Positions 28,665 to 63,895 of a DNA stretch of 64,000 bases are shown piece by piece (within the stretch, counting starts at the first letter, position 1; each line of letters opens with the position of its first letter). Below the pieces are notes generated by a model, which made no database searches, had not been told where the DNA came from, and saw only the letters and a list, made by a program, of their open reading frames with translations. This DNA is from a virus: positions 1 through 64,000 of the IMG/VR virus record IMGVR_UViG_3300045974_000167; one strand, written 5' to 3'. Position numbers and translations under genes: made by a program.

Positions 28665-28701
28665 CTAAATCGTCGGCAACACCTACCCGCCGCCCAATGG
28701 A

Positions 28702-29910
28702 GTGCGCTTGTTTGACCTAGCTTTCAAGGCTCGTCTGCCCATTATCGGTGTGCAGACGGATGATACCGCTAACTTCGATAAGGTACTCGCGTTTTACGCG
28801 GCCCCTAAGAAGGTGGCTTCTCTTGCGGAGAAGCACAAGACGCTAGGTCCGTACCTCTACTGGACTGATGATGAGGATCTGGTTACCACGGATACCTACG
28901 AGGAATTCCGCGCCGCAGGATTGTCGCTAATAGTCCTTAATTTCGATACTTCCCGCAAGAATCCACTGATTTTCGACGGAGGCATCCTCCCGACCCCGGA
29001 TCCTTTAGTCAGGTATCTTCTATCTGATATGCTAGGGGAAGAATGGGTAGAGCCAATCATCCCAGGTCTTCGCGGCCTGTCTCTGAAATCCATTAGGGAA
29101 GTCCTACTACTTACCCAAGCACGAGTTAATGGAATTACCCTCGCTGAGATCCGGCGCACTAGGTCGTCCCTCGTGGGTGGGGCTACCGGACTCTATCTTG
29201 AGGATTCTAGCTATGACTTTTACCAGTGGCCGGAACATCTTAGGGCGTGGTTGGAGCTTAATAAGTCGTATTTTCACAAGGAAACGCACCACAAGCTTGT
29301 ACCAAGGGGACTTATGTTTAACGGACCTCCCGGTGTGGGGAAGTCCATGGCGGCTAAGGCCATCGCAAATACGTTTGGTGTACCGCTATACCGATTCGAT
29401 ATCTCAAGCACTCTCGACAAATACATCGGAGTCTCCGAGGGTCGAGTTCAGAACGTTCTTGATCTCGTCAACCGAGAAGCCCCCTGTGTTCTTCTCCTAG
29501 ACGAAGTAGAGAAAATCTTCCAGGGTAAGGAGGATTCGGGGGTAATCAATCGACTGTTATCTAAGTTACTGTGGTGGCTTGCAGAACATCAGAGCCGGGT
29601 GTTCACGGTTATGACCACTAATGATAAGAGTTCGATCCCTCCCGAGTTGTACCGGACAGGCCGCATCGATAAGGTGATGCCTATCTCCAAGTTGACGTTC
29701 AATGAATCCCGTAAGTTTGCGGCGCAGGTGTTCGAGAGTATCCTAGAGATGAAGCCCGCTCTAGGACAAGTCCCGACGATTACGAAGGCTCTGCAATCGA
29801 TTGCGCCCGCAGACTATCATCCTGACTTTCCCCTACTAGCCCACGCCGATGTAACGGAGGTAGTCGTTAACGAAATTAAAAAGCACGGTTGGGACGTTCC
29901 CAAAAAATAA
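28702..29910 (+). CDS. AAA+ ATPase (Ycf46-like)
   Basis: GPPGVGKS, LLLDEVEK, TTN, PPEL.R.GRID. Confidence 0.88.
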   Translation: MRLFDLAFKARLPIIGVQTDDTANFDKVLAFYAAPKKVASLAEKHKTLGPYLYWTDDEDLVTTDTYEEFRAAGLSLIVLNFDTSRKNPLIFDGGILPTPDPLVRYLLSDMLGEEWVEPIIPGLRGLSLKSIREVLLLTQARVNGITLAEIRRTRSSLVGGATGLYLEDSSYDFYQWPEHLRAWLELNKSYFHKETHHKLVPRGLMFNGPPGVGKSMAAKAIANTFGVPLYRFDISSTLDKYIGVSEGRVQNVLDLVNREAPCVLLLDEVEKIFQGKEDSGVINRLLSKLLWWLAEHQSRVFTVMTTNDKSSIPPELYRTGRIDKVMPISKLTFNESRKFAAQVFESILEMKPALGQVPTITKALQSIAPADYHPDFPLLAHADVTEVVVNEIKKHGWDVPKK

Positions 29911-29914
29911 TCGG

Positions 29915-29943
29915 TTGACAAATCTAGGTTGATTTGTTACGGT
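29915..29943 (+). promoter_or_regulatory. Sigma70-type promoter
   Basis: TTGACA-17bp-TACGGT with extended TG. Confidence 0.65.
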
Positions 29944-29985
29944 GCAAATCGCTGTTGCGGTACAACCCAAACAATGGAGTGATAC

Positions 29986-30591
29986 TTGAATCCTGCACTT
30001 AAGACGGTCGAAGACGTTGAGAAGCACTTTGCTCCCCTCGTTGGGGAGAAGCCGGTGTTCCGTACGGGGACCGGTCGTCCGTACATCCGCATCGCAAACA
30101 AGGGTGATGCCAGCCTTTTCCTCAATGTTGTCCTTGAATCCTTCGAGTACAAGGAGAAGCCGGTGCGCGGAGTCGTTGCCCGGTTCTTCCAGACAGGGGG
30201 GGTGCCTACGTCCTTCGCCCCGCCGCTCAAGGTCCGCGCCGAAGGGAACTTTGAGGGAACTAAGCTGTTCCGGCTGTCGAAGCTGAATTTCGCGCTGTGT
30301 GATTACGCGCATCCCGCGCCGATCACGGCATGGCACAACCAGAAGGTCACGCTCCAGCTTGTTGAGTGGCTTCAGGGCGTGGTTCAGTTTGCCTCTGCGA
30401 CCCCGGTGGGTCCGGAGGTGCTCGCTCAGATCGTAGAGCTGACGATCCCTTCCGCCGATAAGGTGTCGGATGCGAAGGAACTGTTCTCTCTCGACCCGTT
30501 CGATGGGGACGACAAGAACGCGAAGGCTGTTCCCTCTGAGGGCGATGCCGAAGAGGCTGATGAGCCCGACGAGGATGTCGAGGGAGAGTAG
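29986..30591 (+). CDS. Hypothetical protein with acidic C-tail
   Basis: GGAG RBS + TTG; codon bias. Confidence 0.7.
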   Translation: MNPALKTVEDVEKHFAPLVGEKPVFRTGTGRPYIRIANKGDASLFLNVVLESFEYKEKPVRGVVARFFQTGGVPTSFAPPLKVRAEGNFEGTKLFRLSKLNFALCDYAHPAPITAWHNQKVTLQLVEWLQGVVQFASATPVGPEVLAQIVELTIPSADKVSDAKELFSLDPFDGDDKNAKAVPSEGDAEEADEPDEDVEGE

Positions 30592-30702
30592 GCCGTACTG
30601 AGGGGCTGCCCACGCTGCACCGCCACGCCGCCCCCCTCAGTTGCAGCCCCCCGCGCCGGGTCGGGGCTCCCAAAACCCGGCACTTTCTATTTGAGGGGAT
30701 AG

Positions 30703-31713
30703 ATGCCCGAAAACGTGATAGTCGTTAAGCCTGTGTATAAACAGATCACGGGCAGCATGAATTCTGCGGCGCTCCTAGCTCAAATAATTTATTGGCATAC
30801 CCCCGGCGCTACCGGCGCGACTAAGCTGCGCGTAAAACGCGATGGGGAATTGTGGCTCGTTAAATCGTGGAAGGATTGGGAAACCGAAATCGGCCTTTCC
30901 CGAATGCAGAGCCGTGTAGCTCTTGACAAACTGCGGGCATTGGGGCTTATATTCACCCAAGTCCACAAGTTTAACAGCACGCCAACGACGTACATCAAGC
31001 TCCGGGTAGACATGCTTGATGCGGCCATCGAAAAGGTCAATGATTCCGCCGAAAAGTTACCGGTAACCAATCACGGAATGGTTACCAAGGGCCAATCCGA
31101 TTGGTTACCGGTAACCAATCTTATAACAGAGACTACTAAACAAGAGACTACACATGACACTTTGTCCGCAAAATCAGAGAATGTCAAAGAAGCAGTAGAG
31201 AAGGAAAATATGGCAACATTAGAAGAGACATTAAAATTTAAGAAAGAACAGGCTGAAAAAGTTTTAGCGGGAACGAATCCGGCGAAACTCGCTCTACGCT
31301 GGAAGAAGCGACTAGCCAAGACATATGGCGGTTATGTGAAAGATTTGACCGGTGCCGAAATGGGACAGCTCGGTCTACTCGCTAAGATGATGGGGCCTAC
31401 GGACACGGCTAAGTACATCGAAAAGACCGTGGATCTCGCGGCTACGAACTGGGAGGAGTATGTATTTGAGGTCAGGGCCAAGTACGGGTTAACCACGACA
31501 CCCGAAAGACCCGTTGTAGGTTTCCTACTGAAGTACCATGATGTTGCTATTCAGATGTTGCAATCGAGTGCAAAACAGGTTAAGCCTCAGAATGTAACTC
31601 CGTTGAAGGCGGAATCTGTTGCCGCGCCTCAAGAAGTGACTAAGACTAAGGTTGACGTAGCTTCTAAACAAATGGTCGCGGAGGCCCTCGCAAAACTGAA
31701 GCAACAGAAATGA
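30703..31713 (+). CDS. Replication initiator (winged-HTH, lambda O-like)
   Basis: 'AALLAQIIYW', 'KSW.DW..EIGLS', 'L..LGLI'; internal repeats; upstream of loader and helicase. Confidence 0.75.
   Translation: MPENVIVVKPVYKQITGSMNSAALLAQIIYWHTPGATGATKLRVKRDGELWLVKSWKDWETEIGLSRMQSRVALDKLRALGLIFTQVHKFNSTPTTYIKLRVDMLDAAIEKVNDSAEKLPVTNHGMVTKGQSDWLPVTNLITETTKQETTHDTLSAKSENVKEAVEKENMATLEETLKFKKEQAEKVLAGTNPAKLALRWKKRLAKTYGGYVKDLTGAEMGQLGLLAKMMGPTDTAKYIEKTVDLAATNWEEYVFEVRAKYGLTTTPERPVVGFLLKYHDVAIQMLQSSAKQVKPQNVTPLKAESVAAPQEVTKTKVDVASKQMVAEALAKLKQQK
31056..31120. repeat. Iteron cluster, putative replication origin
   Basis: GTTACCGGTAACCAATC at 31056 and 31104; 22-bp perfect palindrome 31099-31120; degenerate copy 31081; A-rich tract follows. 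Confidence 0.7.
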
Positions 31714-31722
31714 GGAGAAGTC

Positions 31723-32253
31723 ATGCTAAACGCAGAACATCACGACCGACTCATTAAGAACTTGGACGCGATTTGCCATACCGCAAACGTGCCCAAGACC
31801 TTTATGCAGAAGTCGGCCAAGGAGTTCTGCTCCGGGGTAGAGCTGGATTGGCTCACTCGCTTCCCTGTTTTCCAGCGAGAGGGCAAAGGTCTTGTGCTTG
31901 TTGGTAAGCACGAAACCGCTCCCGATATAAAGATGATGGCAATGGCCGCAACACTCCTGCGTAACTATATCGACGCCCGTGTCATTACCGTGCAGACGTT
32001 GCTTGAGGCTTCCGAGCATCACCATGAGATCCCTGATCCCACGGTGCTGCTCATTCCGAACCTGTATGTACGACAGGGCGGAAAGGGAATCCCCTCTTGG
32101 AAGATGAGCCTCATCTACGACCTACTCCTGTCCCGCTTCACGGCGGGGAAGGTTACGGTCGCCTACGTTGAGGATATGAAGGTACTAGCCGCTGATTACG
32201 GGGCATTAATGGCGCAGCACTTGAAGTCGGGCTACCTAATCTCCGAAGGGTAG
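31723..32253 (+). CDS. DnaC/IstB-like helicase loader with degenerate Walker motifs
   Basis: 'KGLVLVG', 'VLLIPNL', 'LL.SR' align to the DnaC fold; position between initiator and DnaB. Confidence 0.6.
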   Translation: MLNAEHHDRLIKNLDAICHTANVPKTFMQKSAKEFCSGVELDWLTRFPVFQREGKGLVLVGKHETAPDIKMMAMAATLLRNYIDARVITVQTLLEASEHHHEIPDPTVLLIPNLYVRQGGKGIPSWKMSLIYDLLLSRFTAGKVTVAYVEDMKVLAADYGALMAQHLKSGYLISEG

Positions 32254-32257
32254 AACT

Positions 32258-32759
32258 GTGTCTAAAACTATTGAGCTAACCGGTCTTCGCTTCGGAAGAC
32301 TGGTGGTGGGAGATTTTGCCGGAATTTCTAAATTTGGGAGTAAACTTTGGGAATGCCTCTGTGATTGCGGAACAACCAAGATAATCTCGTCCGCAAGCTT
32401 GCGGCAAGGTGGTACTGTCTCCTGCGGTTGCAAGATGCGTGAGGGTCGTCCCCCTAAACACGGTAAAACTGGTTCTAAAGTATGGAAAGCATGGGAAGCC
32501 ATGCTTGACCGTTGCCATAATCCTAAGAACAAGCGGTTCCACGATTACGGAGGGCGTGGAATCGTCGTATGTTACCGATGGCTAAAGTTTGAAAACTTTT
32601 ACGAGGATATGTGGGATCCCGCAAAGGGTATGTCCCTAGATAGACTTAATAACGACGGCAATTACGAACCAAGTAACTGCCGATGGGCTACGGCAAAAAC
32701 AACAGGCATCGAATAGACGTAAACCCAAACCCTACGCGCCGCGAAAGAAGGTTGCGTAA
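32258..32759 (+). pseudogene. HNH homing endonuclease, frameshifted at A5 run 32695-32699
   Basis: CDCG, SCGC, YGGRGI, LDR.NN.GNY.P.NCRWAT; canonical QQASNRR continues in +1 frame to a TAATG overlap with dnaB. Confidence 0.75.
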
Positions 32760-34039
32760 TGTCTACGTTCATGCTCGGGGCAAAAGCTATAAAGAAATTG
32801 GCCCTCGAACAGAATGCTCTTGCGTTCTTCCAGGCGAAATTTTCTCCTCCGATGTTCAAGGGCGAGAAAGAGCTTGCGCTGCTGGAATTCACAAGAAAGC
32901 ACTATGACGAGTGCCACACACTCCCAACGATTCAAACTCTGGAAACGAAGTTCCCGGAGATCAAGGAGATAGACGTACCCGAACCGTCGATTTACTACGT
33001 CAAGCAGATGGAGAAGAGGTTTGGATATGACCTCTTGAGCAAGGCGACGGCGGAAAGCAGGGATATCTTAAAGAAGGACGACGAAGCTGTTGAAAATGCA
33101 TGGAAGATTCTGCGGGATGCCCAAAATACTTGGACCCAGCAGAAGTACAGACATAAGATCCTAGATGTAAATGTAGACCTGCCCGAATTGCTGCTCACGC
33201 AGTACCACGGGAACCTACTGGGATCGGATATGGCCCCCGCATTCTTCGGGTGGCCGTATCTAGACGACCTTGGTGGGATTGCCCCTGCCGAGGTTGTTTC
33301 TTTTGTGGGCCGTCCTGCTACTGGGAAGTCCTACAAGATGCTGTATTGCGCCCTCCATAACTGGAGCAAGCGCCACGAAAACGTGCTGTTTGTGTCGATG
33401 GAGATGGGGCACCTGCTCATCGGTCAGCGCGTTGGTGCCATGTATACCAACACGCCCGTCAAGCAACTGATGGCGGGGGGGTTCTCAAGTCAGACGTTCT
33501 TGATGTTCGCTGAGAAGATTACGGATATCAAGAAAGAGCCCGCAAAGTTCTACGTTATCGACGGTAATCTCGCGGCCAGCGTAGACGATATTTACAACCT
33601 CGCACTTCTCCTGAAGTGTAGAATCGTCTTCATCGACGGTGCCTATATGTTGAGGCACCCGAACCCTAGACTCGATAGGTATACGAAGGTTGCCGAAAAC
33701 ATCGAATGGATCAAGCGTGTCTCGTCGGATAACAAGTTCATTACGTTCTGTTCGTGGCAGTTTGCCAAGACGGCCGTGACGAAGAAGAAGCAGAAAGGGG
33801 CGAAAGAGGGGCTAGAGGATATCGGCTACTCCGATGCGATTGGTCAAATCAGCGCCCTCGTCATAGGTATCATGCAGGAAGAGGGCGTAGAAACGATAAT
33901 GAAGCGAAAGCTTGAGTTACTGAAGGGTCGTAACGGTGAAATCGGTTCGTGGGAAATCAATTGGAATTTCATGGAGATGGACTTCCAACAGGTAGATGTT
34001 AATACCCAAAAAACCTCCGACGAATTGCAGTATGTATGA
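32759..34039 (+). CDS. dnaB: Replicative DnaB-like helicase
   Basis: GRPATGKS, FVSMEM, FIDG, Q motif, KGRNG. Confidence 0.9.
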   Translation: MSTFMLGAKAIKKLALEQNALAFFQAKFSPPMFKGEKELALLEFTRKHYDECHTLPTIQTLETKFPEIKEIDVPEPSIYYVKQMEKRFGYDLLSKATAESRDILKKDDEAVENAWKILRDAQNTWTQQKYRHKILDVNVDLPELLLTQYHGNLLGSDMAPAFFGWPYLDDLGGIAPAEVVSFVGRPATGKSYKMLYCALHNWSKRHENVLFVSMEMGHLLIGQRVGAMYTNTPVKQLMAGGFSSQTFLMFAEKITDIKKEPAKFYVIDGNLAASVDDIYNLALLLKCRIVFIDGAYMLRHPNPRLDRYTKVAENIEWIKRVSSDNKFITFCSWQFAKTAVTKKKQKGAKEGLEDIGYSDAIGQISALVIGIMQEEGVETIMKRKLELLKGRNGEIGSWEINWNFMEMDFQQVDVNTQKTSDELQYV

Positions 34040-34260
34040 GCGGAAATCCCTGGACAAAACTAGATTCCGCCCCTATAATAAACATACTAACGGTTGAACC
34101 CTGTAAGTGTCTAAAATATAAGTACCCGCACGTTCATAAGCCGATTCAGGATAAAGACGGCGATATCTTCGCGTGGGATGATCAACCGGTAGCGTTACCC
34201 CCGGGAATGACCAGCTTCAAATTTAATTTACTCAAACCTTTTAAGGGAATATACAAATGA
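34036..34260 (+). CDS. Hypothetical protein
   Basis: ATGA-coupled on both sides. Confidence 0.6.
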   Translation: MSGNPWTKLDSAPIINILTVEPCKCLKYKYPHVHKPIQDKDGDIFAWDDQPVALPPGMTSFKFNLLKPFKGIYK

Positions 34261-34550
34261 GCGAGCTTGCTGCTGTTCCTGACGTTGAGACTCCTGCCCC
34301 GGTTGCAAAGAACCGCGCCCGACTGATGATTGACTTCCTGAGCCCCGAGGATGTGCTTGAGTTCGTGAGCAAGCTTCGCCTCGCGGGCCACCTCCCCGAC
34401 GCCGCCAAGGTCTACCAGTCGGATGCGCTGGACTTTCAGGCCCGTAAGATTCAGGGTGTTGGCCGCAAGCACACCTTCATCCTGCGTAACCCGGATGAGT
34501 CCCGCAAGGAGCTGAAGTTCGTGACGAAGAAGGTTCTGGCGGTAGAGTAA
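34257..34550 (+). CDS. Hypothetical protein
   Basis: Strong codon bias, RBS. Confidence 0.7.
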   Translation: MSELAAVPDVETPAPVAKNRARLMIDFLSPEDVLEFVSKLRLAGHLPDAAKVYQSDALDFQARKIQGVGRKHTFILRNPDESRKELKFVTKKVLAVE

Positions 34551-34568
34551 TGCGGGCCGGTTGTGCCG

Positions 34569-34610
34569 GGGGAGTCTGCACTTGATTGCAGGCTCCCCTA
34601 ATCTTTTCGT
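34569..34610 (+). terminator. Intrinsic terminator whose hairpin contains a 14-bp motif copy
   Basis: GGGGAGTCTGCA/TGCAGGCTCCCC stem, T-rich tail. Confidence 0.6.
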
Positions 34611-34639
34611 TTGACAAATGTAGACTGTTTGACTATCCT
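34611..34639 (+). promoter_or_regulatory. Sigma70-type promoter
   Basis: TTGACA-17bp-TATCCT. Confidence 0.7.
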
Positions 34640-34684
34640 GTATTTTGTAACGGCGCGGTTCGGCCACTAACCCATGGAGGGATT

Positions 34685-35149
34685 ATGACTGTCAAGGTCA
34701 CTCAGCTTCAGAAGCCCGTTGCTAAGGTGAAGGATTCTCTCAAGTCTGCGGCGCTGTCCAAGGACACCCGTGCGGCCATCGACCGCCTTTGGGAAATCGA
34801 GCAGAAGCTTGCTCCCATGCGGGCACTTCTCAAGGAAGAGAAGAAGATTCGGGAGCATCTGTCGGAGGTTGCTTCCAACACCGAACGGTTTGACCCCAAG
34901 ATGCCCGCCATCCTAGAGGGTGATGCTGCCGTCCTTGAATACGGCGCGGCTAGCTCTACCCGGGAAATCTCCAACAAGGACGGAGCAATCCAGCTCCTCA
35001 AGGAGAAGATGGGCGGCTACGAGAAGCTTCTCGCAATCATCAAGATCAACCTCGGTGATCTCGACCAGTACACGACCGAGGAGGAGCGGGCACCCTTCGT
35101 CAAGAGTGTTGTCGGCTCTAGAAAGTTTACGACCATCAAGGGGAAGTGA
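34685..35149 (+). CDS. Hypothetical coiled-coil protein
   Basis: GGAGG RBS before ATG 34685. Confidence 0.75.
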   Translation: MTVKVTQLQKPVAKVKDSLKSAALSKDTRAAIDRLWEIEQKLAPMRALLKEEKKIREHLSEVASNTERFDPKMPAILEGDAAVLEYGAASSTREISNKDGAIQLLKEKMGGYEKLLAIIKINLGDLDQYTTEEERAPFVKSVVGSRKFTTIKGK

Positions 35150-35382
35150 TGGCCCTAATTTGCATTGAAATCGATGATAAGTTTCTAGAGTTCAAGGCCG
35201 CATGTACCCCCCTGCTTAAATCTGGGATGTTGCCACTTGGCACGTATGTGCGTCCCATAGTCTCCACTATGGTCATTGCAATGGCCGAAAGCATCTACTA
35301 CATCCGGCAGGGATCCATCTACAAAGTGAAAGACAGGAGCGGAAATGCGCTACAAGAGCCAAAAGCTGACGATCAAGAATGA
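35146..35382 (+). CDS. Hypothetical protein
   Basis: Coupled ORF. Confidence 0.55.
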   Translation: MMALICIEIDDKFLEFKAACTPLLKSGMLPLGTYVRPIVSTMVIAMAESIYYIRQGSIYKVKDRSGNALQEPKADDQE

Positions 35383-35721: not shown

Positions 35722-35736
35722 TCTGCAATCAATTGC

Positions 35737-36720: not shown

Positions 36721-36723
36721 CCT

Positions 36724-39577: not shown

Positions 39578-39578
39578 A

Positions 39579-55994: not shown

Positions 55995-56003
55995 TGCAAT
56001 CAA

Positions 56004-57169: not shown

Positions 57170-57187
57170 CCAAGCACGAGATCCTAG
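57113..57187. repeat. 17-bp direct repeat CAAGCACGAGATCCTAG
   Basis: Exact copies at 57113-57129 and 57171-57187. Confidence 0.9.
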
Positions 57188-57213
57188 ACATCTAGCTAGC
57201 AAGGACACGAGAC

Positions 57214-57690: not shown

Positions 57691-57731
57691 CCTATTGATT
57701 TTAGGGGAGTACCTGTGCTATACCAACCCGT

Positions 57732-58223
57732 ATGAGGGAACTACAAATCTCAAAGGGTTGTACCGCTTTAGTAGATGACGAAGATTTTGAGTTAGTTTCA
57801 AAATGGAGATGGTCGTATTGTAAGGGGTACGCCGTTAGGCGAGAGCGTTACGGGCCTCGTAAAGAGAACCGAGCCAAGTGGATATACCTACATAGATTCG
57901 TGTTGGGGCTCACGGATAACTCTGGATTATCCACCGATCATATAAATCGTAACCGTTTAGACTGTAGAAAAGAGAATCTACGATTAGTTTCTCACAGAGA
58001 AAATTGTCTCAACACCCCCAAGAAAACATACAAGCACGGAGCGTCCTCTAAATACAAAGGAGTTTCTTTCAACAAGAAACTTAAGAAATGGCGCGCTAGA
58101 GTGTACGAGCATGGAAAAGAAATGCTGGTTGGGAATTTCCTAACTGAAGACGAGGCCGCATTAGCGTATAATGCTATGGTTACGAAGCTGCGTGGTAATC
58201 TAGCCACGCTAAACGCGGTTTAA
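57732..58223 (+). CDS. HNH-AP2 homing endonuclease
   Basis: LVDDED, LHR, DHINRNRLD.RKENLR, SKYKGV, AA.AYN. Confidence 0.9.
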   Translation: MRELQISKGCTALVDDEDFELVSKWRWSYCKGYAVRRERYGPRKENRAKWIYLHRFVLGLTDNSGLSTDHINRNRLDCRKENLRLVSHRENCLNTPKKTYKHGASSKYKGVSFNKKLKKWRARVYEHGKEMLVGNFLTEDEAALAYNAMVTKLRGNLATLNAV

Positions 58224-58232
58224 GGAGAGACA

Positions 58233-58520
58233 ATGGGATTCGTTCTTGGTGGGACAAACGTAGTCCAGGCTATTACTGCCAGCAGCGCCGTCGTTACCGG
58301 CGTCAAGTCTGGGCAGCCGTACCTTGTTACCTCTACTACAGATTGCTACCTTGCAATCGGTGGGGCGGCGGCGCTTAATGCCGGTATCTTCATCCCTGCT
58401 AAGTACCCGCAGGTGCTACGCTTCGGCTCAGACCTTGGTGCAGCTAACGTCGATCTCCGTGTAATCGGAACTACTGGGTACATTCATCTGAACCCTGGTA
58501 AAGAGATCGGCAACGACTAG
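58233..58520 (+). CDS. Small beta-rich hypothetical protein
   Basis: AAGGAG RBS. Confidence 0.7.
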   Translation: MGFVLGGTNVVQAITASSAVVTGVKSGQPYLVTSTTDCYLAIGGAAALNAGIFIPAKYPQVLRFGSDLGAANVDLRVIGTTGYIHLNPGKEIGND

Positions 58521-58535
58521 CTGCAACTGATTGCA

Positions 58536-58577
58536 GGACGGACGCCCCAAAATGTAGGGGTGTCCGTCTTTCGTTTT
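58536..58577 (+). terminator. Intrinsic terminator directly after a 14-bp motif copy
   Basis: GGACGGACGCCCC/GGGGTGTCCGTCT stem + T-rich tail. Confidence 0.75.
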
Positions 58578-58638
58578 GCAGAACGTTGTGCGATGCTCAC
58601 CATCTCACGACGCCCGCACACCCATGGAGGGATTATTA

Positions 58639-58899
58639 GTGATTGACCTTATTCGCGGTACCATGCTGGCGGCGATTGCCAACCGCCGTACAGGTACTTT
58701 CTCCTGGCCCGACGACTATTGCTGCTCAGAGAAGTGGTACTACTGGGTCCATGTTACCTGGGTAGACGACTGGAATCGTGAAGGTCGTGTAACTGAATGC
58801 ATCGAGTTCCTGCTCAAGTGGCTTGATAGCGATGCCAACATCCAGCGGGCGCTCGATAAGGCCATCGAGTGGAAGGCCAAGTGGGGTACTGATACATGA
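58639..58899 (+). CDS. Hypothetical protein
   Basis: GGAGG RBS + GTG. Confidence 0.65.
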   Translation: MIDLIRGTMLAAIANRRTGTFSWPDDYCCSEKWYYWVHVTWVDDWNREGRVTECIEFLLKWLDSDANIQRALDKAIEWKAKWGTDT

Positions 58900-59090
58900 C
58901 CGAACCCAAGACTGACGAACTCGTTGGACCCTTCAAGATCAAGAAGACTGAACACGAACGGGGGGAACCGGCCTGGGAGCGTATGGCTAACAACGTCGCC
59001 CGAAACTTCGTCGGGGGCATGGATGAATGCAAGACCTGCGGGCGTCCTCGCGTGCAGCGGTACTGCTGCACTTTCTGCGGGGGCGAGTGA
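58896..59090 (+). CDS. Small zinc-ribbon protein
   Basis: CKTCG...CTFCG. Confidence 0.6.
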   Translation: MTEPKTDELVGPFKIKKTEHERGEPAWERMANNVARNFVGGMDECKTCGRPRVQRYCCTFCGGE

Positions 59091-59440
59091 TGAGCATCAA
59101 GGACATGGAAGTCCCCTTCGGGTTCAACCAGGGGCATCGCACCGATACATTCGTTGCCATTAGAGAACTGGGATTCAATTCCATGGGGGCGTTCGTAGTC
59201 AACGGCTACAGTACCCCGCCGCCTGAGCCCAGAGGAACGTTCTTCACCTCTATCCCGATTAGCAAGAAGGAATACCGCGAGAAGCATCCTACCCAGGCGG
59301 GATTTCACCTTACTAGGCTAAGAATCATCTTCTACGATGATTGGGGTGAGAGGTACAGCATCTACGCCGCCCCGGCAATCTTGAAGCAGCTTGCATACGA
59401 GTGCGTTATTAACGGTATTCCGGAGACAGCGGGGGGCTAA
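59090..59440 (+). CDS. Hypothetical protein
   Basis: TGATG-coupled. Confidence 0.6.
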   Translation: MSIKDMEVPFGFNQGHRTDTFVAIRELGFNSMGAFVVNGYSTPPPEPRGTFFTSIPISKKEYREKHPTQAGFHLTRLRIIFYDDWGERYSIYAAPAILKQLAYECVINGIPETAGG

Positions 59441-59838
59441 TGAACCTAGGATTCACCGGTACCCGTGAAGGGATGAGCCAACGGCAGAAACTTGCCCTTG
59501 GGGAACTCCTTGACGGTAGATACAGTATGAACATCGGTGACTTCCATCACGGGGACTGTCAAGGCGCGGATACCCAGGCGCACTTGATTGCAAAATCCCG
59601 GGGATGGAACATCATCATCCACCCGCCCGACCAGACCTACGCCAGAGCATACAACACAGGGTTCTCCTCCATTCGTATGCCCATGCCGTTCCTGGCTAGA
59701 AACCACAACATTGTCGATGAATGTAGTGCATTAATCGCGGCCCCGCGAACCGAGAAGGAAGAGTTAAGAAGTGGTACATGGGCCACCATCCGCTATGCTT
59801 GGAAACAGGGCAAGACCGTCGTAATCCTCAACCCGTAG
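59440..59838 (+). CDS. SLOG-superfamily (DprA/YspA-like) protein
   Basis: GFTGTR, HGDC.GAD, RN..IV, SGTW.T..YA. Confidence 0.75.
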   Translation: MNLGFTGTREGMSQRQKLALGELLDGRYSMNIGDFHHGDCQGADTQAHLIAKSRGWNIIIHPPDQTYARAYNTGFSSIRMPMPFLARNHNIVDECSALIAAPRTEKEELRSGTWATIRYAWKQGKTVVILNP

Positions 59839-59854
59839 TCAATGGAGTGACCAG

Positions 59855-60082
59855 ATGGGCAATGACTTCCCGAACGACCTCGTTGGTTCTTGGGCTACCT
59901 ACCTTACCGCTTCCAAGGGCGAAGTCCCGTGCAAGATTCGCGGCGCACACGCTACGAAGGGTGATACCTACTTGGTGGTCGAGATTGCTTCCGGCCCCAA
60001 CAAGGGCGAGCTTGTGACCGTCCCCGCCTTCCGCATCAAGATCGGATTGTCTGACGAGGCGCGAGCCATCCTCACCAAATAA
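59855..60082 (+). CDS. Small SH3-like hypothetical protein
   Basis: GGAG RBS. Confidence 0.6.
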   Translation: MGNDFPNDLVGSWATYLTASKGEVPCKIRGAHATKGDTYLVVEIASGPNKGELVTVPAFRIKIGLSDEARAILTK

Positions 60083-60084
60083 AC

Positions 60085-60113
60085 TTGTCAAACGTAGCGT
60101 GACCTGCTACAAC
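60085..60113 (+). promoter_or_regulatory. Sigma70-type promoter
   Basis: TTGTCA-17bp-TACAAC with extended TG. Confidence 0.55.
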
Positions 60114-60148
60114 ACAATCTGACGTTGCACACAATCCATGGAGGGACG

Positions 60149-60541
60149 ATGTTCTTTTCGATGCTCGACAGGTACAAGGACCGGATGGGGGACTACAATG
60201 CCCCCCCGCCTAACTTCAAGGAAGTCACTGCTGACGAGTTTGCGAAAATACCCCATCTTAGTGGGGTGCCGGACAAGCTCGAATACCGGCAGATTATCCT
60301 CACAGACAACCGTAGCCCTCTGATTGACGGGGTGTTGCATTGGTACAACGACGGTCACGGGTGGATGATCAATCAAGTGTACTGGAACAAGGAAAAGTCC
60401 CAGTTCGAGTACACGCTGCGCTTCTACACCTTCTCTATTTGCGAGCACGACTTCGGCAAGGACGAAGGTACCGCGATGTTTGAGCACAAGTTCACCTGCA
60501 AGAAGTGCGGCTATACGTACGGATACGACTCAAGCGGATAA
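60149..60541 (+). CDS. Hypothetical protein with C-terminal Zn ribbon
   Basis: CEH...CKKCG. Confidence 0.7.
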   Translation: MFFSMLDRYKDRMGDYNAPPPNFKEVTADEFAKIPHLSGVPDKLEYRQIILTDNRSPLIDGVLHWYNDGHGWMINQVYWNKEKSQFEYTLRFYTFSICEHDFGKDEGTAMFEHKFTCKKCGYTYGYDSSG

Positions 60542-60561
60542 CCAACACAAAGGGGTGCGTC

Positions 60562-60831
60562 TTGAACAAAGAGAGCCGAGCCCTGTGGTTTCTCGTCGGT
60601 GCGATAGCAATCATTCTTCTAGAGGTCGGCGGCGCGGCTGTAGCCATGGGGACGTATGACCCTCCTCCTGCTACCGCAGACTACGGAAGAAACATCGGAC
60701 GAGAGGTAGTGGTCTACATCGATGAGCATGTCCCCGGCAACAAGCCGGTAGTTAAATACTCCGGTTGCCGCCCTGAGGGGCTCGCATTCCGGCGCAAGCC
60801 ACCCGAAACCACAAAGGCTAAGAACAAGTAA
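60562..60831 (+). CDS. Small membrane protein
   Basis: N-terminal TM. Confidence 0.55.
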   Translation: MNKESRALWFLVGAIAIILLEVGGAAVAMGTYDPPPATADYGRNIGREVVVYIDEHVPGNKPVVKYSGCRPEGLAFRRKPPETTKAKNK

Positions 60832-61031
60832 TGTCGGATAACTTACCGTTCGGAAGTGACGGACCCATCCGTAAGATCATCTCCAAGGAACCCTTCATCG
60901 ACAAGATGTTCAAGATTGAACGCTTTCGGGTCAAGTTAGAGTGCGGTCATACCGTGTTTCGGCGGAAGCGGATGTTCCCCAAGGGTACCTTCATCAAGTG
61001 TGAGAAGTGCCCAGGCACGAAGGATCTATGA
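60831..61031 (+). CDS. Small Zn-binding protein
   Basis: LECGH...CEKC. Confidence 0.6.
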   Translation: MSDNLPFGSDGPIRKIISKEPFIDKMFKIERFRVKLECGHTVFRRKRMFPKGTFIKCEKCPGTKDL

Positions 61032-61255
61032 AACCCTGCACCCATTCTGCGATGGAAGCGCGTGAGGCATACGCAGTTGGCGTGTGCCCAAACTGTCTTG
61101 AGGCAGATATTGCCTTTCTGCGGGCTGCACTAGCGGACAAGGAAATGGAGATCGACGTTCTGCGGCGCTACGGAAACAAAGACTGTACTAGACAGGCGGA
61201 TGAGGAGATAGCTAAGACTCGCGTAGAGAACTTGCGTGCCCGCTTCGGGAGGTAG
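61028..61255 (+). CDS. Hypothetical protein
   Basis: ATGA-coupled. Confidence 0.55.
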   Translation: MKPCTHSAMEAREAYAVGVCPNCLEADIAFLRAALADKEMEIDVLRRYGNKDCTRQADEEIAKTRVENLRARFGR

Positions 61256-61261
61256 GGACTT

Positions 61262-61417
61262 ATGACCACCAAAGCTAGGCCCCTCGTTACCAAGGTTCGT
61301 TGTATGTGGTGTCCTGCTGGGCATGGAGGAAAGAATACTGTTCTGTGTAAGCACTGCGGGAACACCGGGTTAACCGACCATGTTCCTTCGTGGAATAAGG
61401 CAAAAGGTAAAAAATGA
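61262..61417 (+). CDS. Small Zn-binding protein (51 aa, not in ORF track)
   Basis: GGAGG/AGGG RBS; CMWC...CKHCG; ATGA overlap with next gene. Confidence 0.55.
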   Translation: MTTKARPLVTKVRCMWCPAGHGGKNTVLCKHCGNTGLTDHVPSWNKAKGKK

Positions 61418-61629
61418 AAACGCATATCGAGCTTCCGGAAGTGAACGAGTATTTCTGCCGTTCTATTCCGTATGGAACCCAAGCCCATATCTCCTACGAG
61501 CAGTTCCTAGCTACCGTAAACAAGGGATCCATCAGCGGGCGACTGTCCAGCCGCCCCAGCAGCAACGTCATAGTACCCTACTGCATCACTTGTCTTAGGC
61601 TGGCGAAGGCTCGATGCTACTCTAGCTGA
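61414..61629 (+). CDS. Hypothetical protein
   Basis: Coupled ORF. Confidence 0.5.
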   Translation: MKTHIELPEVNEYFCRSIPYGTQAHISYEQFLATVNKGSISGRLSSRPSSNVIVPYCITCLRLAKARCYSS

Positions 61630-61714
61630 CACGCCCCAAATGATACTTCGCACTCCCAAGGGAAATGTGCGAATGTCAAATCATTGATGCGGTGAAACCC
61701 CATGGAGGGATTTA

Positions 61715-62071
61715 ATGCTGACATACGCTGGGATGTCGTTCATGCCCCACCCACGGGGCGGGTACATGAAGTACATCTGCGAATCCCCGTCTGGGAATTC
61801 CTATACTCTGTCCCTAGACCCCAACTGGAAGGGGGCACGTTGTTCCTGCCCTGGAGCGATTCATCATCACGACCGGGTGTGTAAGCACGTTAGAGCATTC
61901 AACGAGATGATGGCCTCCAATAACATGAATACCGCTGTAGCTGTGGCGGCAATCATGCAGCACGAGACTATGGATAATGTTAGCGAGGAGGCCAGCGAGA
62001 TTAGTGACATTTCCAATACCAATCGCCCCGCCCCTGTGGTAAGTGACTACCTCAAGAAGTTGGGATTCTAA
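61715..62071 (+). CDS. SWIM zinc-finger protein
   Basis: CSC...CKH. Confidence 0.75.
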   Translation: MLTYAGMSFMPHPRGGYMKYICESPSGNSYTLSLDPNWKGARCSCPGAIHHHDRVCKHVRAFNEMMASNNMNTAVAVAAIMQHETMDNVSEEASEISDISNTNRPAPVVSDYLKKLGF

Positions 62072-62076
62072 CTCAC

Positions 62077-62158
62077 GGTGTCCTGGCGGAAATGGTAGAC
62101 GCGCTAGCCTTAGGAGCTAGTGCCGAAAGGCGTGAGGGTTCGATTCCCTCGGACACTA
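62077..62158 (+). tRNA. tRNA-Leu(UAG)
   Basis: Cloverleaf, CTAGC-CT-TAG-GA-GCTAG, long variable arm, GTTCGA. Confidence 0.92.
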
Positions 62159-62164
62159 CTTCAC

Positions 62165-62246
62165 GGGACTGTGGCGAAACTGGTAGACGCATGGGACTTA
62201 AAATCCCCCGCCGAAAGGCATCCCGGTTCGATTCCGGGCAGTCCTA
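62165..62246 (+). tRNA. tRNA-Leu(UAA)
   Basis: Cloverleaf, anticodon TAA, long variable arm. Confidence 0.9.
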
Positions 62247-62250
62247 TCTT

Positions 62251-62326
62251 GCCTCCATAGCTCAGTTGGTAGAGCAGCGGGCTTTTAACCCGTTGGTCGT
62301 AGGTTCAAATCCTACTGGGGGTACCA
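62251..62326 (+). tRNA. tRNA-Lys(UUU)
   Basis: Cloverleaf, anticodon TTT, encoded CCA. Confidence 0.93.
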
Positions 62327-62332
62327 TTTTTC

Positions 62333-62407
62333 AGTCCCTTAGCTCAGAGGTAGAGCGAGGCCCTTACAAGGCTTAGGTCGTCGGTTCGATCCCGACAGGG
62401 GCTACCA
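62333..62407 (+). tRNA. tRNA-Val(UAC)
   Basis: Cloverleaf, anticodon TAC, encoded CCA. Confidence 0.92.
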
Positions 62408-62459
62408 GTTGCAATCGATTGCAGATGTAGGTTAATAGTAGTCAAACCGGTGAGAACAT

Positions 62460-62783
62460 ATGGGGGTCACCTTGATTCGTGTGATAGATAAACCCGTAGT
62501 TGTCGATGAACCCGCCGTAGTTGCACAGTCCTCCGTACATTACGACGAGCCCTCCGAGGATATCCCAGCACACCCCTGCACGCATAATAACCTCATGCGT
62601 GTCAAGATGTTCGCTGGAGAATCTGTAGAGGAAGTAGAGGAAAAGGTCAATGCGTGGCTTTTTAAGCACTTCATTGTCAGCCCCCTCGCTATCAAGATGT
62701 CGGCGCGTCCTGGGATGATTGCTGTCCTGATTCAATACGAGTACGACCACGTTCCCAAGAAGAAGGGCGAGGATGAGGACTGA
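62460..62783 (+). CDS. Hypothetical protein
   Basis: Gene string. Confidence 0.6.
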   Translation: MGVTLIRVIDKPVVVDEPAVVAQSSVHYDEPSEDIPAHPCTHNNLMRVKMFAGESVEEVEEKVNAWLFKHFIVSPLAIKMSARPGMIAVLIQYEYDHVPKKKGEDED

Positions 62784-62799
62784 CGCCCCAAACGGCGGC

Positions 62800-62828
62800 T
62801 TGCACCCCGGAGATACATCCTCTATTGT
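62800..62828 (+). promoter_or_regulatory. Sigma70-type promoter
   Basis: TTGCAC-17bp-TATTGT. Confidence 0.5.
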
Positions 62829-62865
62829 CGCATCATCGACACGGCGCAAACACCATGGAGGGAAA

Positions 62866-63075
62866 ATGCCAGAACCGATGAAGCTCTCGATTAACATTGA
62901 CGCGCAGGTTCGTCAGTTGGGGGAGCGGGAGTTTGAATGCTCTGTCGTGCTCACAGGTGACACCGGCAAGCCGCATCCCGTGCTAGTTACGCGGCGCGGC
63001 GGTTCTGCTGGACAGGCTCTTTCGATTGCTGTATCTTGGGCGTTCGACTACGTTAAGACCATGGAGGGAACATGA
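62866..63075 (+). CDS. Hypothetical protein
   Basis: GGAGG RBS. Confidence 0.65.
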   Translation: MPEPMKLSINIDAQVRQLGEREFECSVVLTGDTGKPHPVLVTRRGGSAGQALSIAVSWAFDYVKTMEGT

Positions 63076-63287
63076 ACGTTGCTACCTTTGCTGGGTTGTT
63101 CACGAATGCGAAGAGGATTGTCTCGCTGATCGGCGTCACCGAGAACAGGATTGATACCGCCGCCCGACTTCGGAAGATCGCAGGTGACGACCTTCTGATG
63201 CTTGACCTGTGCAGGGCGATTGATTCCCTGGACCTGCACCTTCGTACCGCTGGTAATACCGACCTTGAAATTACCGTGAAGGAATAA
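63072..63287 (+). CDS. Hypothetical protein
   Basis: GGAGG RBS, ATGA overlap. Confidence 0.65.
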   Translation: MNVATFAGLFTNAKRIVSLIGVTENRIDTAARLRKIAGDDLLMLDLCRAIDSLDLHLRTAGNTDLEITVKE

Positions 63288-63293
63288 CCTTAA

Positions 63294-63653
63294 GGGGGCG
63301 AATTAGATTCGACAGATAACGCCAACATGAGATGCGTGCCGTGGTTGGTCAGCAGGCCACGTAAAAAGCCGACCAAACGATCAAAGGCCAACGAGCCGAT
63401 GGTCAGCCTCCGCGCCGTAGCTTAAGCGCGTAGGTTGCGGGGACTACGTGAGCCCCGCCGTTCTACCGGAAGATCACCCTTGTACCGGCTAGGGCGTAAT
63501 TACAGGGTGCGGACCTAGGGATTAGAGGCTCGACTAGGAATGCTGTGCAAGAGAGTCCATTGTCTGTAACCTGCCCAGGTCTACAGGGACACGCACGTAG
63601 TATCTGATGGAAACGTTGTTTGGACCGGGGTGCAATTCCCCGCGCCTCCACCA
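63294..63653 (+). ncRNA. ssrA: tmRNA, tag (A)ANEPMVSLRAVA*
   Basis: GGGGGCG/CGCCTCC-ACCA acceptor with G3-U; GATTCGAC; T-arm; tag ORF 63387-63425. Confidence 0.93.
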
Positions 63654-63895
63654 ATACGTTAGGGGTGGCCCTGCAAAACAGGGCATCGTAAAACCCCCCA
63701 GTAGGGTGCGACGCCCTACCTTTACACGGGTCGATGCCTCCTAAGACCCATTCAAATAACTCTGGAGGCTTTTAATATGTTCATAGGGACAGGCCACGGC
63801 GACTAATCTACAGCCAATCCGCCTCCCAAAATGCAGAGAGTGGGCCGCTCCGCAGCCACTTTAATTACTGGGGAGCTACTTTTCATGGAGGAACG

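Follow-up and report, generated by a model that had tools for sequence, protein, structure and literature searches.

Hairpins over ribosome-binding sites

Why so many ribosome-binding sites of one phage should lie in small, similar RNA hairpins, and what reads them, is the question raised by this locus. The window analyzed here covers positions 1 to 64,000 of a virus record of 83,559 nt, 87% complete, from an uncultured pond phage. According to the original prediction, a constant ANGGAG hexaloop with compensatory flanks serves as a shared translational switch, operated by host CsrA or by a phage homologue encoded outside the window. All 15 predicted sites were located (Table 1). CC-ATGGAG-GG occurs seven times in the window and CA-ATGGAG-TG at 28695, 29972, 44962, 59840, and 6519, while the remaining three are CA-ACGGAG-TG (44087), TTA-ATGGAG-TAA (37658), and TTC-ATGGAG-GAA (63882). 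The last 19.5 kb of the record, past the window, holds 12 further copies at ribosome sites. The copy at 6519 was rejected as a ribosome site, as no start codon follows it, and either arose by chance or is vestigial. At 45633 to 45642, a 5-bp ATCCC/GGGAT fold is possible as an alternative.

Table 1. Hairpins and promoter set in the window
Feature	Position	Strand	Following gene or remark	Promoter
CA-ATGGAG-TG copy	6519..6528	+	intergenic gap, no start codon behind	
CA-ATGGAG-TG hairpin	28695..28704	+	TTG 28708 (AAA ATPase, 400 aa)	28636-28664
CA-ATGGAG-TG hairpin	29972..29981	+	TTG 29986 (201 aa)	29915-29943
CC-ATGGAG-GG hairpin	34672..34681	+	ATG 34685 (154 aa)	34611-34639
TTA-ATGGAG-TAA hairpin	37658..37669	+	ATG 37672 (zinc-ribbon protein, 56 aa)	
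CA-ACGGAG-TG hairpin	44087..44096	+	ATG 44104 (261 aa, phrog_17202)	
ACA-ATGGAG-TGT hairpin	44961..44972	+	ATG 44978 (94 aa)	
CC-ATGGAG-GG hairpin	45633..45642	+	ATG 45646 (312 aa)	45595-45623
CC-ATGGAG-GG hairpin	58622..58631	+	GTG 58639 (86 aa)	58569-58597
GTCA-ATGGAG-TGAC hairpin, 4 bp	59838..59851	+	ATG 59855 (75 aa)	
TCC-ATGGAG-GGA hairpin	60135..60146	+	ATG 60149 (130 aa)	promoter-like box ~55 nt upstream
CC-ATGGAG-GG hairpin	61700..61709	+	ATG 61715 (118 aa)	61648-61676
CC-ATGGAG-GG hairpin	62853..62862	+	ATG 62866 (69 aa)	62800-62828
CC-ATGGAG-GG hairpin	63059..63068	+	ATG 63072 (71 aa)	
TTC-ATGGAG-GAA hairpin	63882..63893	+	ATG 63896 (63 aa)	
Sigma70-like promoter set	28636..62828	+	TTGNNN - N5 - AG - N10 - [T/G]ANNNT	

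The stem closing the A-N-G-G-A-G hexaloop, which holds the Shine-Dalgarno (SD) core, measures 2 to 4 bp here and up to 6 bp in relatives, and 2 to 5 nt separate its end from the start codon. A occupies the first loop position in 58 of the 60 hairpins whose stems reach 3 bp or more, compared with 151 of 343 unpaired GGAG ribosome sites, and position 2 is variable. Position 6 is G without exception. The near-invariant A at position 1 is not explained by anti-SD pairing but is accounted for by the CsrA-type ANGGA rule. Published CsrA/RsmA sites place ANGGA in an apical loop, with the SELEX consensus CANGGAYG forming a hexaloop, U at N preferred by RsmA, and a pyrimidine favored at the sixth loop base (bioRxiv 10.1101/2020.08.24.265819). 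The likeness to CsrA/RsmA sites originally noted thus agrees with the published rule.

Pairing and covariation

At least two Watson-Crick pairs close NNGGAG at 19 of the 45 ribosome-placed GGAG sites of this genome, compared with 34 of 334 elsewhere. The original observation was confirmed and proved stronger than first claimed. When 3' flanks were shuffled among the ribosome sites, 6.2 ± 2.1 paired sites were expected, and the best of 5,000 shuffles gave 15, short of the 19 observed. With eight related genomes pooled, 74 of 285 sites were paired, whereas shuffling predicted 22.1 ± 4.4 and never gave more than 38. ATGGAG itself was paired in 17 of 20 ribosome-placed copies and in 10 of 35 others (Fisher, 7e-5), five of these 10 resembling ribosome sites overlooked by the crude gene model.

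A formal pair count over all 118 unselected GGAG ribosome sites of this genome and the related genome G003 gave a covariation of 0.255, compared with 0.165 ± 0.019 after shuffling (0 of 500 shuffles reached 0.255), with its peak at zero slide of the partner columns. CC..GG and CA..TG both occur within homologous leader cassettes, a compensatory change, and 57 distinct stems were counted across the eight genomes. The claim of a constant loop with compensatory flanks is therefore upheld. Only 1 of 47 annotated GGAG ribosome sites was paired in the T7 control, and the pattern was absent from Vibrio phage SIO-2 (1/40) and Aeromonas phage HJ05 (4/82). Together, these statistics indicate that the sites are genuine RNA hairpins, more than strong SD sequences.

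Pairing could in principle have no function of its own and be a by-product of duplicated promoter-leader-ribosome-site cassettes of two sequence types. Many leaders of this genome are indeed homologous over 40 to 50 nt, so their sites are not independent. However, one leader family holds both flank types, the stems are diverse across genomes, and the signal is strong even where the phrog_17202 protein, which served as the marker in finding relatives, is only 34 to 42% identical. Moreover, enrichment is limited to one register: among 20 tested, only two bases plus GGAG plus nothing was enriched (26% versus 8%). A by-product origin is thus already largely refuted, and we regard it as very improbable.

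Placement at predicted operon starts

The hairpins belong to a module that runs from a sigma70-like promoter through a short leader to the hairpin and the first gene of the transcript. The 14 strongest promoters include nine in the window, at 28636, 29915, 34611, 36724, 45595, 58569, 61648, 62800, and 29647, the last a strict regular-expression match. The motif follows 11 of the 14 after 13 to 36 nt of CA-rich, AG-free leader, and 10 of these 11 loops have two or more closing pairs. A noncoding gap of at least 40 nt precedes 94 of 147 hairpin sites, compared with 142 of 403 other GGAG ribosome sites (Fisher, 2e-9). In DLP_5, which with DLP_3 (both Stenotrophomonas phages) is the nearest cultured relative, hairpin-predicted starts coincide with RefSeq start codons at five of the six sites checked, and the orthologue of the phrog_17202 gene is preceded by CACA-ACGGAG-TGAT. 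By their placement, the hairpins mark promoter-proximal genes, namely, the first gene after most predicted promoters, in this phage and its relatives. The expectation that promoter-proximal nonstructural genes carry them and structural genes do not was confirmed.

This placement also suits the main rival to a protein-read signal, a hairpin that displays the SD without any dedicated protein. The stem would keep GGAG single-stranded and prestacked on the 3' arm, while the first two bases of the loop form the turn, so that the 30S subunit loads fast on the first, uncoupled cistron, whichever gene follows; in those relatives in which it lies 5 to 10 nt from the 5' end, the hairpin may stabilize the mRNA too. 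Operon starts, to which the motif is tied, offer no translational coupling. GGAG, the SD core, is the only sequence in paired loops (pairing enrichment was looked for with GGAA, GGAT, and GGAC loops and not found), and the 3' arm always begins immediately after it. CA-rich, G-poor, AG-free leaders exclude competing structure and decoy SD sequences. For G003, folding predictions show the hairpins forming, and the probability that the SD is unpaired increases with them from 0.45 to 0.78. Furthermore, the motif is distributed independently of CsrA in the host, and a search of the phages for recognized RNA-binding domain families found none. However, the 2-bp stems of this genome and DLP_5 are predicted to be unstable alone (closing-pair probability, 0.03 to 0.09), and SD accessibility barely differs between hairpin and unpaired sites (0.46 versus 0.37 here; 0.44 versus 0.44 in DLP_5). 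That such stems are nevertheless strongly selected argues for a stabilizing partner. SD display also leaves the A at loop position 1 unexplained, and stems of 5 to 6 bp abutting the start codon need melting before initiation and should hinder rather than help it. In addition, T7 manages without the motif, as do SIO-2 and HJ05, which are related phages. We therefore consider SD display a serious but somewhat unlikely explanation.

Host CsrA as a reader

The original prediction favored host CsrA/RsmA, which would bind the hairpins and repress, or be titrated by, the promoter-proximal messages of the phage. Loop and closing pair fit CANGGANG and the apical-loop ANGGA rule, down to the U that RsmA prefers at N, and Stenotrophomonas, the host of DLP_5 and DLP_3, belongs to the Xanthomonas lineage, in which csrA alleles are known (PMC7366521). 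However, hairpins are also present in cultured relatives that infect Rhodobacter and Rhizobium. Phage RcZahn has 21 of 79 sites paired (18 with at least 3 bp) and RHph_TM16 has 19 of 56 (14 with at least 3 bp), while CsrA was found in 0 of 151 sampled genomes of the Rhodobacter family, in 1 of 151 of the Rhizobium family, and in none of six named Rhodobacter, Cereibacter, Rhizobium, and Sinorhizobium genomes. Conversely, Vibrio and Aeromonas, the hosts of SIO-2 and HJ05, presumably carry CsrA, and these two related phages lack the motif. As hairpins abound in phages from host families with CsrA in at most one of the genomes searched, host CsrA is not the general reader of the hairpins. This part of the prediction is not supported, and such a role now appears improbable.

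A candidate phage-encoded reader

No CsrA gene was found anywhere in the record, inside the window or beyond it. However, a small all-beta protein is encoded at one syntenic position in every complete hairpin-bearing relative, between kinase-like and thymidylate-synthase-like genes and upstream of the DNA polymerase gene. Family members at this position (DLP_5, DLP_3, G003, RcZahn, RHph_TM16, and KarBoss) are 88 to 126 aa long, with an insertion of ~50 residues. CsrA was the sole Pfam match for four members, with E values of 4e-4 to 0.23, all below the gathering score. In a PDB search with the family profile, all 10 sequence matches were CsrA, RsmE, RsmN, or RsmF, and their alignments include the LILTRKVGE-like motif at the N terminus as well as the INAPKDVxVHR-like motif at the C terminus. 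When the profile was built from DLP_5-type members, which are of the type nearest to this phage, no CsrA was found in the PDB. Alignment to CsrA with hhalign gave a P value of 0.0035 and a probability of 9%, with the Arg44 equivalent conserved. A Foldseek search with the candidate protein returned no matches, and the VIA-align match to RsmN (Z 4.0, rank 30) was within noise, although it was the structural match with the best identity (23% over 53/64 residues). Both protein ends thus resemble CsrA, below significance thresholds, and we treat the protein as a candidate homologue.

At 16 extra uncultured phage loci with the gene, stems of at least 3 bp were found at 42 of 397 ribosome-like GGAG sites, compared with 36 of 1,519 other GGAG; 4 of the 16 loci show few hairpins. 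In SIO-2, which has no hairpins, the syntenic homologue is degenerate and the AP..R motif is gone from it. The co-occurrence of hairpins and gene tracks phylogeny, with few negative genomes. The entire block in which relatives carry the gene, with kinase, Thy, ThyX, and DNA polymerase, is missing from the present record; as the record is 87% complete, the candidate gene is expected in the unassembled part. The predicted homologue outside the window thus has a counterpart in relatives, which carry a small CsrA-like gene, but the gene is absent from this record and its homology stays below threshold.

On these sequence comparisons, a small phage-encoded CsrA-like protein is the likeliest hairpin reader, rather than host CsrA. 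We tentatively favor a phage-private, CsrA-style translational operator system, at a little under an even chance. The hairpins would be operators for this protein with its CsrA/RsmN-like terminal motifs. Once bound, it would clamp the stem, cover the GGA, and compete with the 30S subunit, thereby tuning or shutting off translation of all promoter-proximal genes jointly and independently of host CsrA. Each leader holds one GGA site; classic CsrA regulation usually involves two. This single GGA, the G in place of a pyrimidine at the sixth loop position, the absence of pairing enrichment with GGAA, GGAT, and GGAC loops, and the C that starts the KarBoss loop (GT-CAGGAG-AC) speak against an operator system.

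Alternatively, something else could read the hairpin as an operator or cleavage signal, for instance a small RNA, a different RNA-binding protein, or a nuclease like RegB that acts at the SD. In T4, RegB cuts GGAG in the SD of early messages and thereby inactivates them (PMC1702504), and the AG-free leaders fit such a signal. However, the RegB target is single-stranded GGAGRAYARAA with no hairpin (PMC1702504), and searches for RegB, S1, cold-shock, and S21 families in this record and in G001 to G003 found none. Another reader of this kind therefore seems a poor prospect.

Comparison with known systems

Like the CsrA/RsmA/RsmE sites (RsmE-hcnA, PDB 2JPP; RsmA/N SELEX and CLIP consensus), the hairpins present GGA in an A-N-G-G-A-N hexaloop on a short stem, with the GGA overlapping the SD in the 5' leader of a first gene and U favored at N; a short stem of this kind requires the protein to stay closed. 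In contrast, each leader here has one site, the loop invariably ends in G, A-U closing pairs are common, and the motif occupies 20 to 40% of a phage's GGAG ribosome sites, also in phages of hosts without CsrA; moreover, the candidate reader is a phage protein that fails the Pfam CsrA threshold. RsmN/RsmF (PDB 4KJI and 4K59), a rearranged CsrA-family member ranking second and third in the family-profile search, shares with the candidate CsrA-type strands interrupted by an internal insertion. The candidate's insertion is all-beta and longer, and with the Z score within noise the relationship is unproven.

Phages are known to carry CsrA-family regulators, even where hosts have no chromosomal csrA; canonical csrA occurs in 30 of 2,517 phage genomes (PMC7366521). 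Those genes are canonical and detectable by PSI-BLAST, with no operator set on phage messages described, whereas the family here escapes Pfam. In T4 early-gene shutoff by RegA and RegB, one phage factor similarly acts on many early ribosome sites (PMC1702504, PMC3014915), but the targets are unstructured, and no RegB homologue was found here.

The start-associated sequence SAS of Cluster K mycobacteriophages is present in 11 to 19 copies per genome, only in the nonstructural half, 3 to 7 bp before start codons with ATG favored, and neither its function nor its reader is known (Pope et al. 2011, PMC3203893). It contains AGGAG between symmetric outer bases (GGG-N7-CCC) and, like the present motif, lies near the starts of nonstructural genes. 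However, SAS is conserved in sequence over 13 bp, with GGG/CCC fixed around an interior of 7 nt, while here the loop alone is constant and the stems covary freely. Furthermore, the hosts here are Proteobacteria, and a candidate reader gene has been identified.

Covarying hairpins over ribosome-binding sites

All hairpin sites listed in the original prediction were present in the sequence, and 12 further ribosome-placed copies occur in the same record beyond the window. In each, a short stem closes a hexaloop of the form A-N-GGAG, with the Shine-Dalgarno (SD) core in the loop. Every coding-strand GGAG, rather than those chosen by eye, was scored as ribosome-placed (followed after 4-11 nt by the start codon of a modelled gene) or other, and the uninterrupted Watson-Crick pairs that can form across the NNGGAG loop, between its two flanks, were counted. 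Flank pairing had been expected to be more frequent at ribosome sites than elsewhere. Indeed, at least two pairs were found at 19/45 ribosome sites compared with 34/334 other GGAG in this genome. When the 3' flanks were re-dealt among the ribosome sites, keeping composition, 6.2 +/- 2.1 such sites were expected; the highest value was 15, and none of 5000 shuffles reached the observed 19. Only 1 of 20 loop registers was enriched in the pooled genomes (two bases before GGAG and none after; 26% vs 8%), and the others stayed at background, bar two trivially nested ones. The T7 control yielded 1/47 paired sites.

The flanks also covary, as had been proposed. A formal pair count over 118 unselected ribosome GGAG from this genome and the related uncultured contig G003 gave 0.255, compared with 0.165 +/- 0.019 after shuffling (reached in 0/500 shuffles), and the score peaked at zero slide of the partner columns. 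Many hairpin sites of this genome share 40-50 nt of upstream homology and are therefore copies of a promoter-leader-ribosome-site cassette, not independent events. The covariation claim survives this non-independence because a single leader family bears both CC..GG and CA..TG flanks, a double compensatory change, and because relatives carry very different stems around the same loop. Altogether, 57 distinct stems were found across the genomes. Of the 60 hairpins with at least 3 bp, 58 had an A-N-GGAG loop, whereas A occupied the first loop position at 44% of unpaired GGAG ribosome sites. The second position of these 60 loops was A in 29, U in 16, C in 13 and G in 2, and the closing pair was C-G in 36 and A-U in 17. 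GGAG lies 5-8 nt from the start codon at hairpin sites.

Other explanations of the motif were rejected. A mini-ORF beginning at the ATG of ATGGAG would not keep one frame relative to the real start: depending on the site, it stops at ATGA, is in frame or is out of frame. Extended anti-SD pairing as the sole cause of the 3' flank accommodates TGAT and GGAT only with a bulge and does not accommodate TAAC, GAAC, TGCC or AGAA; it also leaves the 5' flank unexplained.

Promoter-proximal placement and genome layout

The full record, from a pond metagenome, comprises 83,559 nt, of which the window is the first 64,000; it is listed as linear, with an estimated completeness of 87%. The plus strand carries nearly all genes. 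A scan of genome contigs for the host of this phage gave no match.

Features of the record and of a related phage, with coordinates
Feature	Position	Remarks
Virion proteins	window ~1-28 kb	
Giant virion-region ORF	window 1-6145	>2047 aa; repeated ~70-80-aa segment matches DLP_5, G003, KarBoss and SIO-2 at several positions
Giant virion-region ORF	window 8587-15117	2176 aa
14-bp palindrome of type TGCAATCAATTGCA	window ~26690 and ~35720	Recurs in loci L003, L006 and L008 and in RHph_TM16, RcZahn and KarBoss; sometimes directly upstream of a ribosome site, e.g. before 35737
Replication and recombination genes	window 28-45 kb	AAA ATPase, initiator, DnaB, primase, helicase, UvsX-like recombinase, RuvC
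Near-invariant AG in promoter spacer	window 28636-62828 and remainder of record (L060)	11-12 nt upstream of -10 box
Orphan gene	window 31723-32253	176 aa; between replication initiator and DnaB
Marker protein gene	window 44104-44889	261 aa; phrog_17202
Further genes	window 45-58 kb	Methyltransferases, WbqC-like protein, ParB, terminase, PIG-L-like protein, thymidylate kinase, dUTPase
Small ORFs	58 kb to record end	Numerous
tRNA gene cluster	window 62077-62407	Four genes: Leu-TAG, Leu-TAA, Lys-TTT, Val-TAC
ORF of naive ORF list	window 62092-62376	Spurious, because the tRNA cluster occupies the interval
KarBoss CsrA-like gene	L051:6259-6718 (- strand; PQ758715 26259-26718)	Split over two overlapping frames

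A position weight matrix seeded on TTGNNN-N5-AG-N10-[T/G]ANNNT identified 14 strong promoters on the plus strand of this record; the strict pattern had 13 matches on the plus strand vs 1 on the minus strand. In agreement with the proposed position of the hairpins behind sigma70-like promoters, the ATGGAG motif follows 11 of the 14 promoters at a distance of 13-36 nt, with at least two closing pairs at 10. No AG occurs in the leaders between promoter and motif before the ribosome-site GGAG. Across nine genomes, a preceding non-coding gap of at least 40 nt was found at 94/147 hairpin sites vs 142/403 others (Fisher, 2e-9). In G003 and the cultured phages RcZahn and RHph_TM16, the stem starts only ~9-17 nt past the -10 box and hence lies near the 5' end of the message. 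Structural genes were without the motif, as first noted.

Hairpins in related phages

Megablast and one tblastn search against cultured phages returned no match; cultured relatives, together with related uncultured contigs, were later recovered with the marker protein. Four members are cultured and have tractable hosts: DLP3 and DLP5 infect Stenotrophomonas, RcZahn infects Rhodobacter capsulatus and RHph_TM16 infects Rhizobium. RcZahn and RHph_TM16 are among the more distant relatives, as are Aeromonas phage HJ05 and ~34 siphophages of Vibrio, including SIO-2 and KarBoss. In its published description, RcZahn is already tied to RHph_TM16 and DLP_3 (PMC8601537); neither this account nor that of DLP3 mentions the motif. 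The marker protein itself is conserved across Stenotrophomonas, Vibrio, Rhizobium and Rhodobacter phages, and its label in two records, "putative ribonuclease E/G family protein", appears unsupported because it has no Pfam match.

Hexaloop hairpins at ribosome-placed GGAG in related phages
Phage or contig	Stem of at least 2 bp	Stem of at least 3 bp
DLP_5	22/83	3
DLP_3	22/82	1
G003	16/73	13 (8 with 4 bp)
G002	7/51	6
RcZahn	21/79	18
RHph_TM16	19/56	14 (up to 6 bp)
SIO-2	1/40	0
HJ05	4/82	2

KarBoss carries 12 copies of one constant variant, GT-CAGGAG-AC. A motif-agnostic scan for recurrent hairpins abutting the start codon recovered AAGGAG, ACGGAG and ATGGAG loops in the hairpin-bearing group and nothing recurrent in SIO-2, HJ05 or T7. 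RefSeq start codons in DLP_5 match 5 of the 6 hairpin sites checked. The hairpin pattern is real, more extensive than first noted and conserved across a broad group of siphophages, some of them cultured.

Stem stability

The main rival to recognition by a protein is that the hairpin acts on its own as a leader structure that displays the SD sequence. The 4-bp stems of G003 are predicted to form (closing-pair probability, 0.57), and the predicted probability that the SD is unpaired in this contig is 0.78 at 4-bp hairpins vs 0.45 at other sites, as protein-independent display would have it. The 2-bp stems are not predicted to form, with closing-pair probabilities of 0.09 in this genome and 0.03 in DLP_5, and they barely alter SD accessibility in either. 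As the 2-bp stems are unstable alone yet strongly selected, these predictions point to a partner molecule that stabilizes them. RsmE stabilizes the hcnA site in a comparable way.

Host CsrA as a possible reader

The consensus site of CsrA/RsmA is A-N-G-G-A in an apical hexaloop (bioRxiv 10.1101/2020.08.24.265819). On the RNA side, the suggested CsrA analogy is well founded, as an A-N-GGAG hexaloop over the SD in a promoter-proximal 5' leader closely fits the published site. However, CsrA/RsmA targets usually have at least two GGA sites for high-affinity dimer binding, whereas no second GGA was seen in 10 typical leaders read by eye.

Host CsrA was one of two readers originally put forward. No CsrA was found in three Rhodobacter/Cereibacter and three Rhizobium/Sinorhizobium genomes (0/6). 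At the family level, it was detected in 0/151 genomes of the RcZahn host family and 1/151 of the RHph_TM16 host family. The positive controls of this search were detected, and across the class Alphaproteobacteria a PF02599 match above the cut-off was present in 62/301 sampled genomes, many of which are small (1-2.5 Mb). Alphaproteobacteria are commonly stated to lack CsrA; as a blanket statement this is wrong on these counts, and it is true for the two host families tested. RcZahn and RHph_TM16 thus keep dozens of hairpins in hosts without CsrA as far as searched, while the related SIO-2 and HJ05 have none of the recurrent hairpins, which contradicts host CsrA as the cause of motif upkeep. Host CsrA may well bind the hairpins where it exists; it cannot explain their maintenance.

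A candidate phage-encoded reader

The alternative put forward was a phage homologue encoded outside the window. PF02599 had no match in this record or in contigs G001-G003 and matched weakly in RcZahn (E 0.0039) and KarBoss (E 4.9e-4). A local iterative search gathered one protein family of 88-126 aa with members in RcZahn (6524-6829), RHph_TM16, G003, DLP_5 (gp082, YP_009620033), DLP_3 and KarBoss; the N-terminal motif belongs to the MALSIGVKxGSxIxIG type, and at the C terminus the motif reads RLAFEAPRSIRIER or IDAPxEIxIxRG. The closest homologues (P0003-P0006) are 55-64% identical. In all six genomes, the candidate gene lies between kinase-like and thymidylate-synthase-like genes, a few kilobases upstream of the DNA polymerase gene. 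In the split KarBoss gene, MLKLSVKKGDKVYF opens the N-terminal part and IAIDAPNTVAVNK lies within the C-terminal part; the split may reflect a sequencing error, a genuine frameshift or gene breakage.

CsrA was the sole Pfam match for four members, at 11.9-20.7 bits and thus under the 27-bit gathering threshold. With a five-member profile, all ten PDB matches were CsrA, RsmE, RsmN or RsmF (E 0.1-1) with both termini aligned; the N-terminal beta1 (M-L-x-L-x-R-K-x-G-E) and C-terminal beta5 motifs align to RsmE, and the position of the essential Arg44 is conserved, with Arg nearly invariant. With a 20-member profile, mostly of the DLP_5 type, no CsrA was found in PDB, and hhalign against ten bacterial CsrA sequences aligned 22 C-terminal columns (P = 0.0035; probability, 9%). 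CsrA proteins adopt an interdigitated beta-sandwich dimer fold. The AlphaFold model of DLP_5 gp082, built as a monomer, is confident (pLDDT 91) and all-beta, with eleven strands. Foldseek with this model gave no match at E <= 0.001, and the VIA-align match to RsmN (Z 4.0, 53/64 residues, 23% identity, rank 30) was not above noise. Homology of the candidate family to CsrA is suggestive and unproven.

The block of kinase, Thy, ThyX and DNA polymerase genes is present in the complete relatives G003, RcZahn, RHph_TM16, KarBoss and SIO-2 and missing from this record and from G002, which is 50% complete; in HJ05, matches were confined to the DNA polymerase and an ATPase. Judging from the complete relatives, the block of this phage most likely sits in the missing 13% of its genome. 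Among 16 further uncultured phage loci carrying the gene, stems of at least 3 bp occurred at 42/397 ribosome-like GGAG vs 36/1519 elsewhere; many of the stems were new, and four loci had few hairpins. The syntenic homologue in SIO-2 is degenerate, its AP..R motif being lost, and this phage has no hairpins. Hairpin style also matches protein subtype: the DLP_5-type protein accompanies 2-bp stems that carry AUGGAG loops, the style of this phage, and the IDAP..RG type accompanies A(A/C)GGAG loops on 3-6-bp stems. Phylogeny alone could yield this match.

Other possible readers were also considered. S1, cold-shock domain and S21 families were sought in the phages and not found. In a phylogenetic profile of the proteins of this genome, the 176-aa orphan was the only one to track the hairpin-bearing genomes: every relative with hairpins has it, and SIO-2 and HJ05 do not. 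Neither Pfam nor PHROG gave a match for the orphan, which is probably a helicase loader and therefore a poor reader candidate. Overall, a phage homologue encoded outside the window is the best available explanation, argued from co-occurrence and sub-threshold similarity.

Comparison with known systems

A self-contained phage translational regulon with an unrecognized, insertion-bearing CsrA relative, operating in hosts with or without a Csr system, is a reading that we hold tentatively, with somewhat less than even confidence. The reader would be encoded in the nucleotide-metabolism/replication block and found across widespread ~80-100-kb siphophages (Delepquintavirus, RcZahn, RHph_TM16, KarBoss and many uncultured phages). 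It would bind 15-30 covarying A-N-GGAG operator hairpins at the leading ribosome site of almost all non-structural transcripts, and the outcome would be CsrA-style global translational control even in hosts without a Csr system. If so, CsrA-type control, in which one small protein clamps GGA hairpins over ribosome sites, would be a portable viral module, bringing its own operators and a divergent family of proteins missed by current domain libraries. If the hairpin instead acts without a protein, it would represent a compact natural insulator design for ribosome sites, useful to synthetic biology.

RegB-like cleavage was rejected, as the RegB target is unstructured and no PF10715 homologue was found in this record or G001-G003. 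The T4 target combines a single-stranded GGAG with an A-rich 7-mer, whereas here the 3' flank is a stem arm. The closest published phenomenon is that of the start-associated sequences of Cluster K mycobacteriophages, a conserved 13-bp GGGATAGGAGCCC that is equally unexplained (PMC3203893). In contrast to those, the stems described here vary, the loop is 6 nt and there is no conserved 13-bp sequence; the likeness is confined to placement and symmetric outer bases. A phage-encoded regulon of the kind proposed would also suggest a candidate mechanism for the mycobacteriophage sequences.
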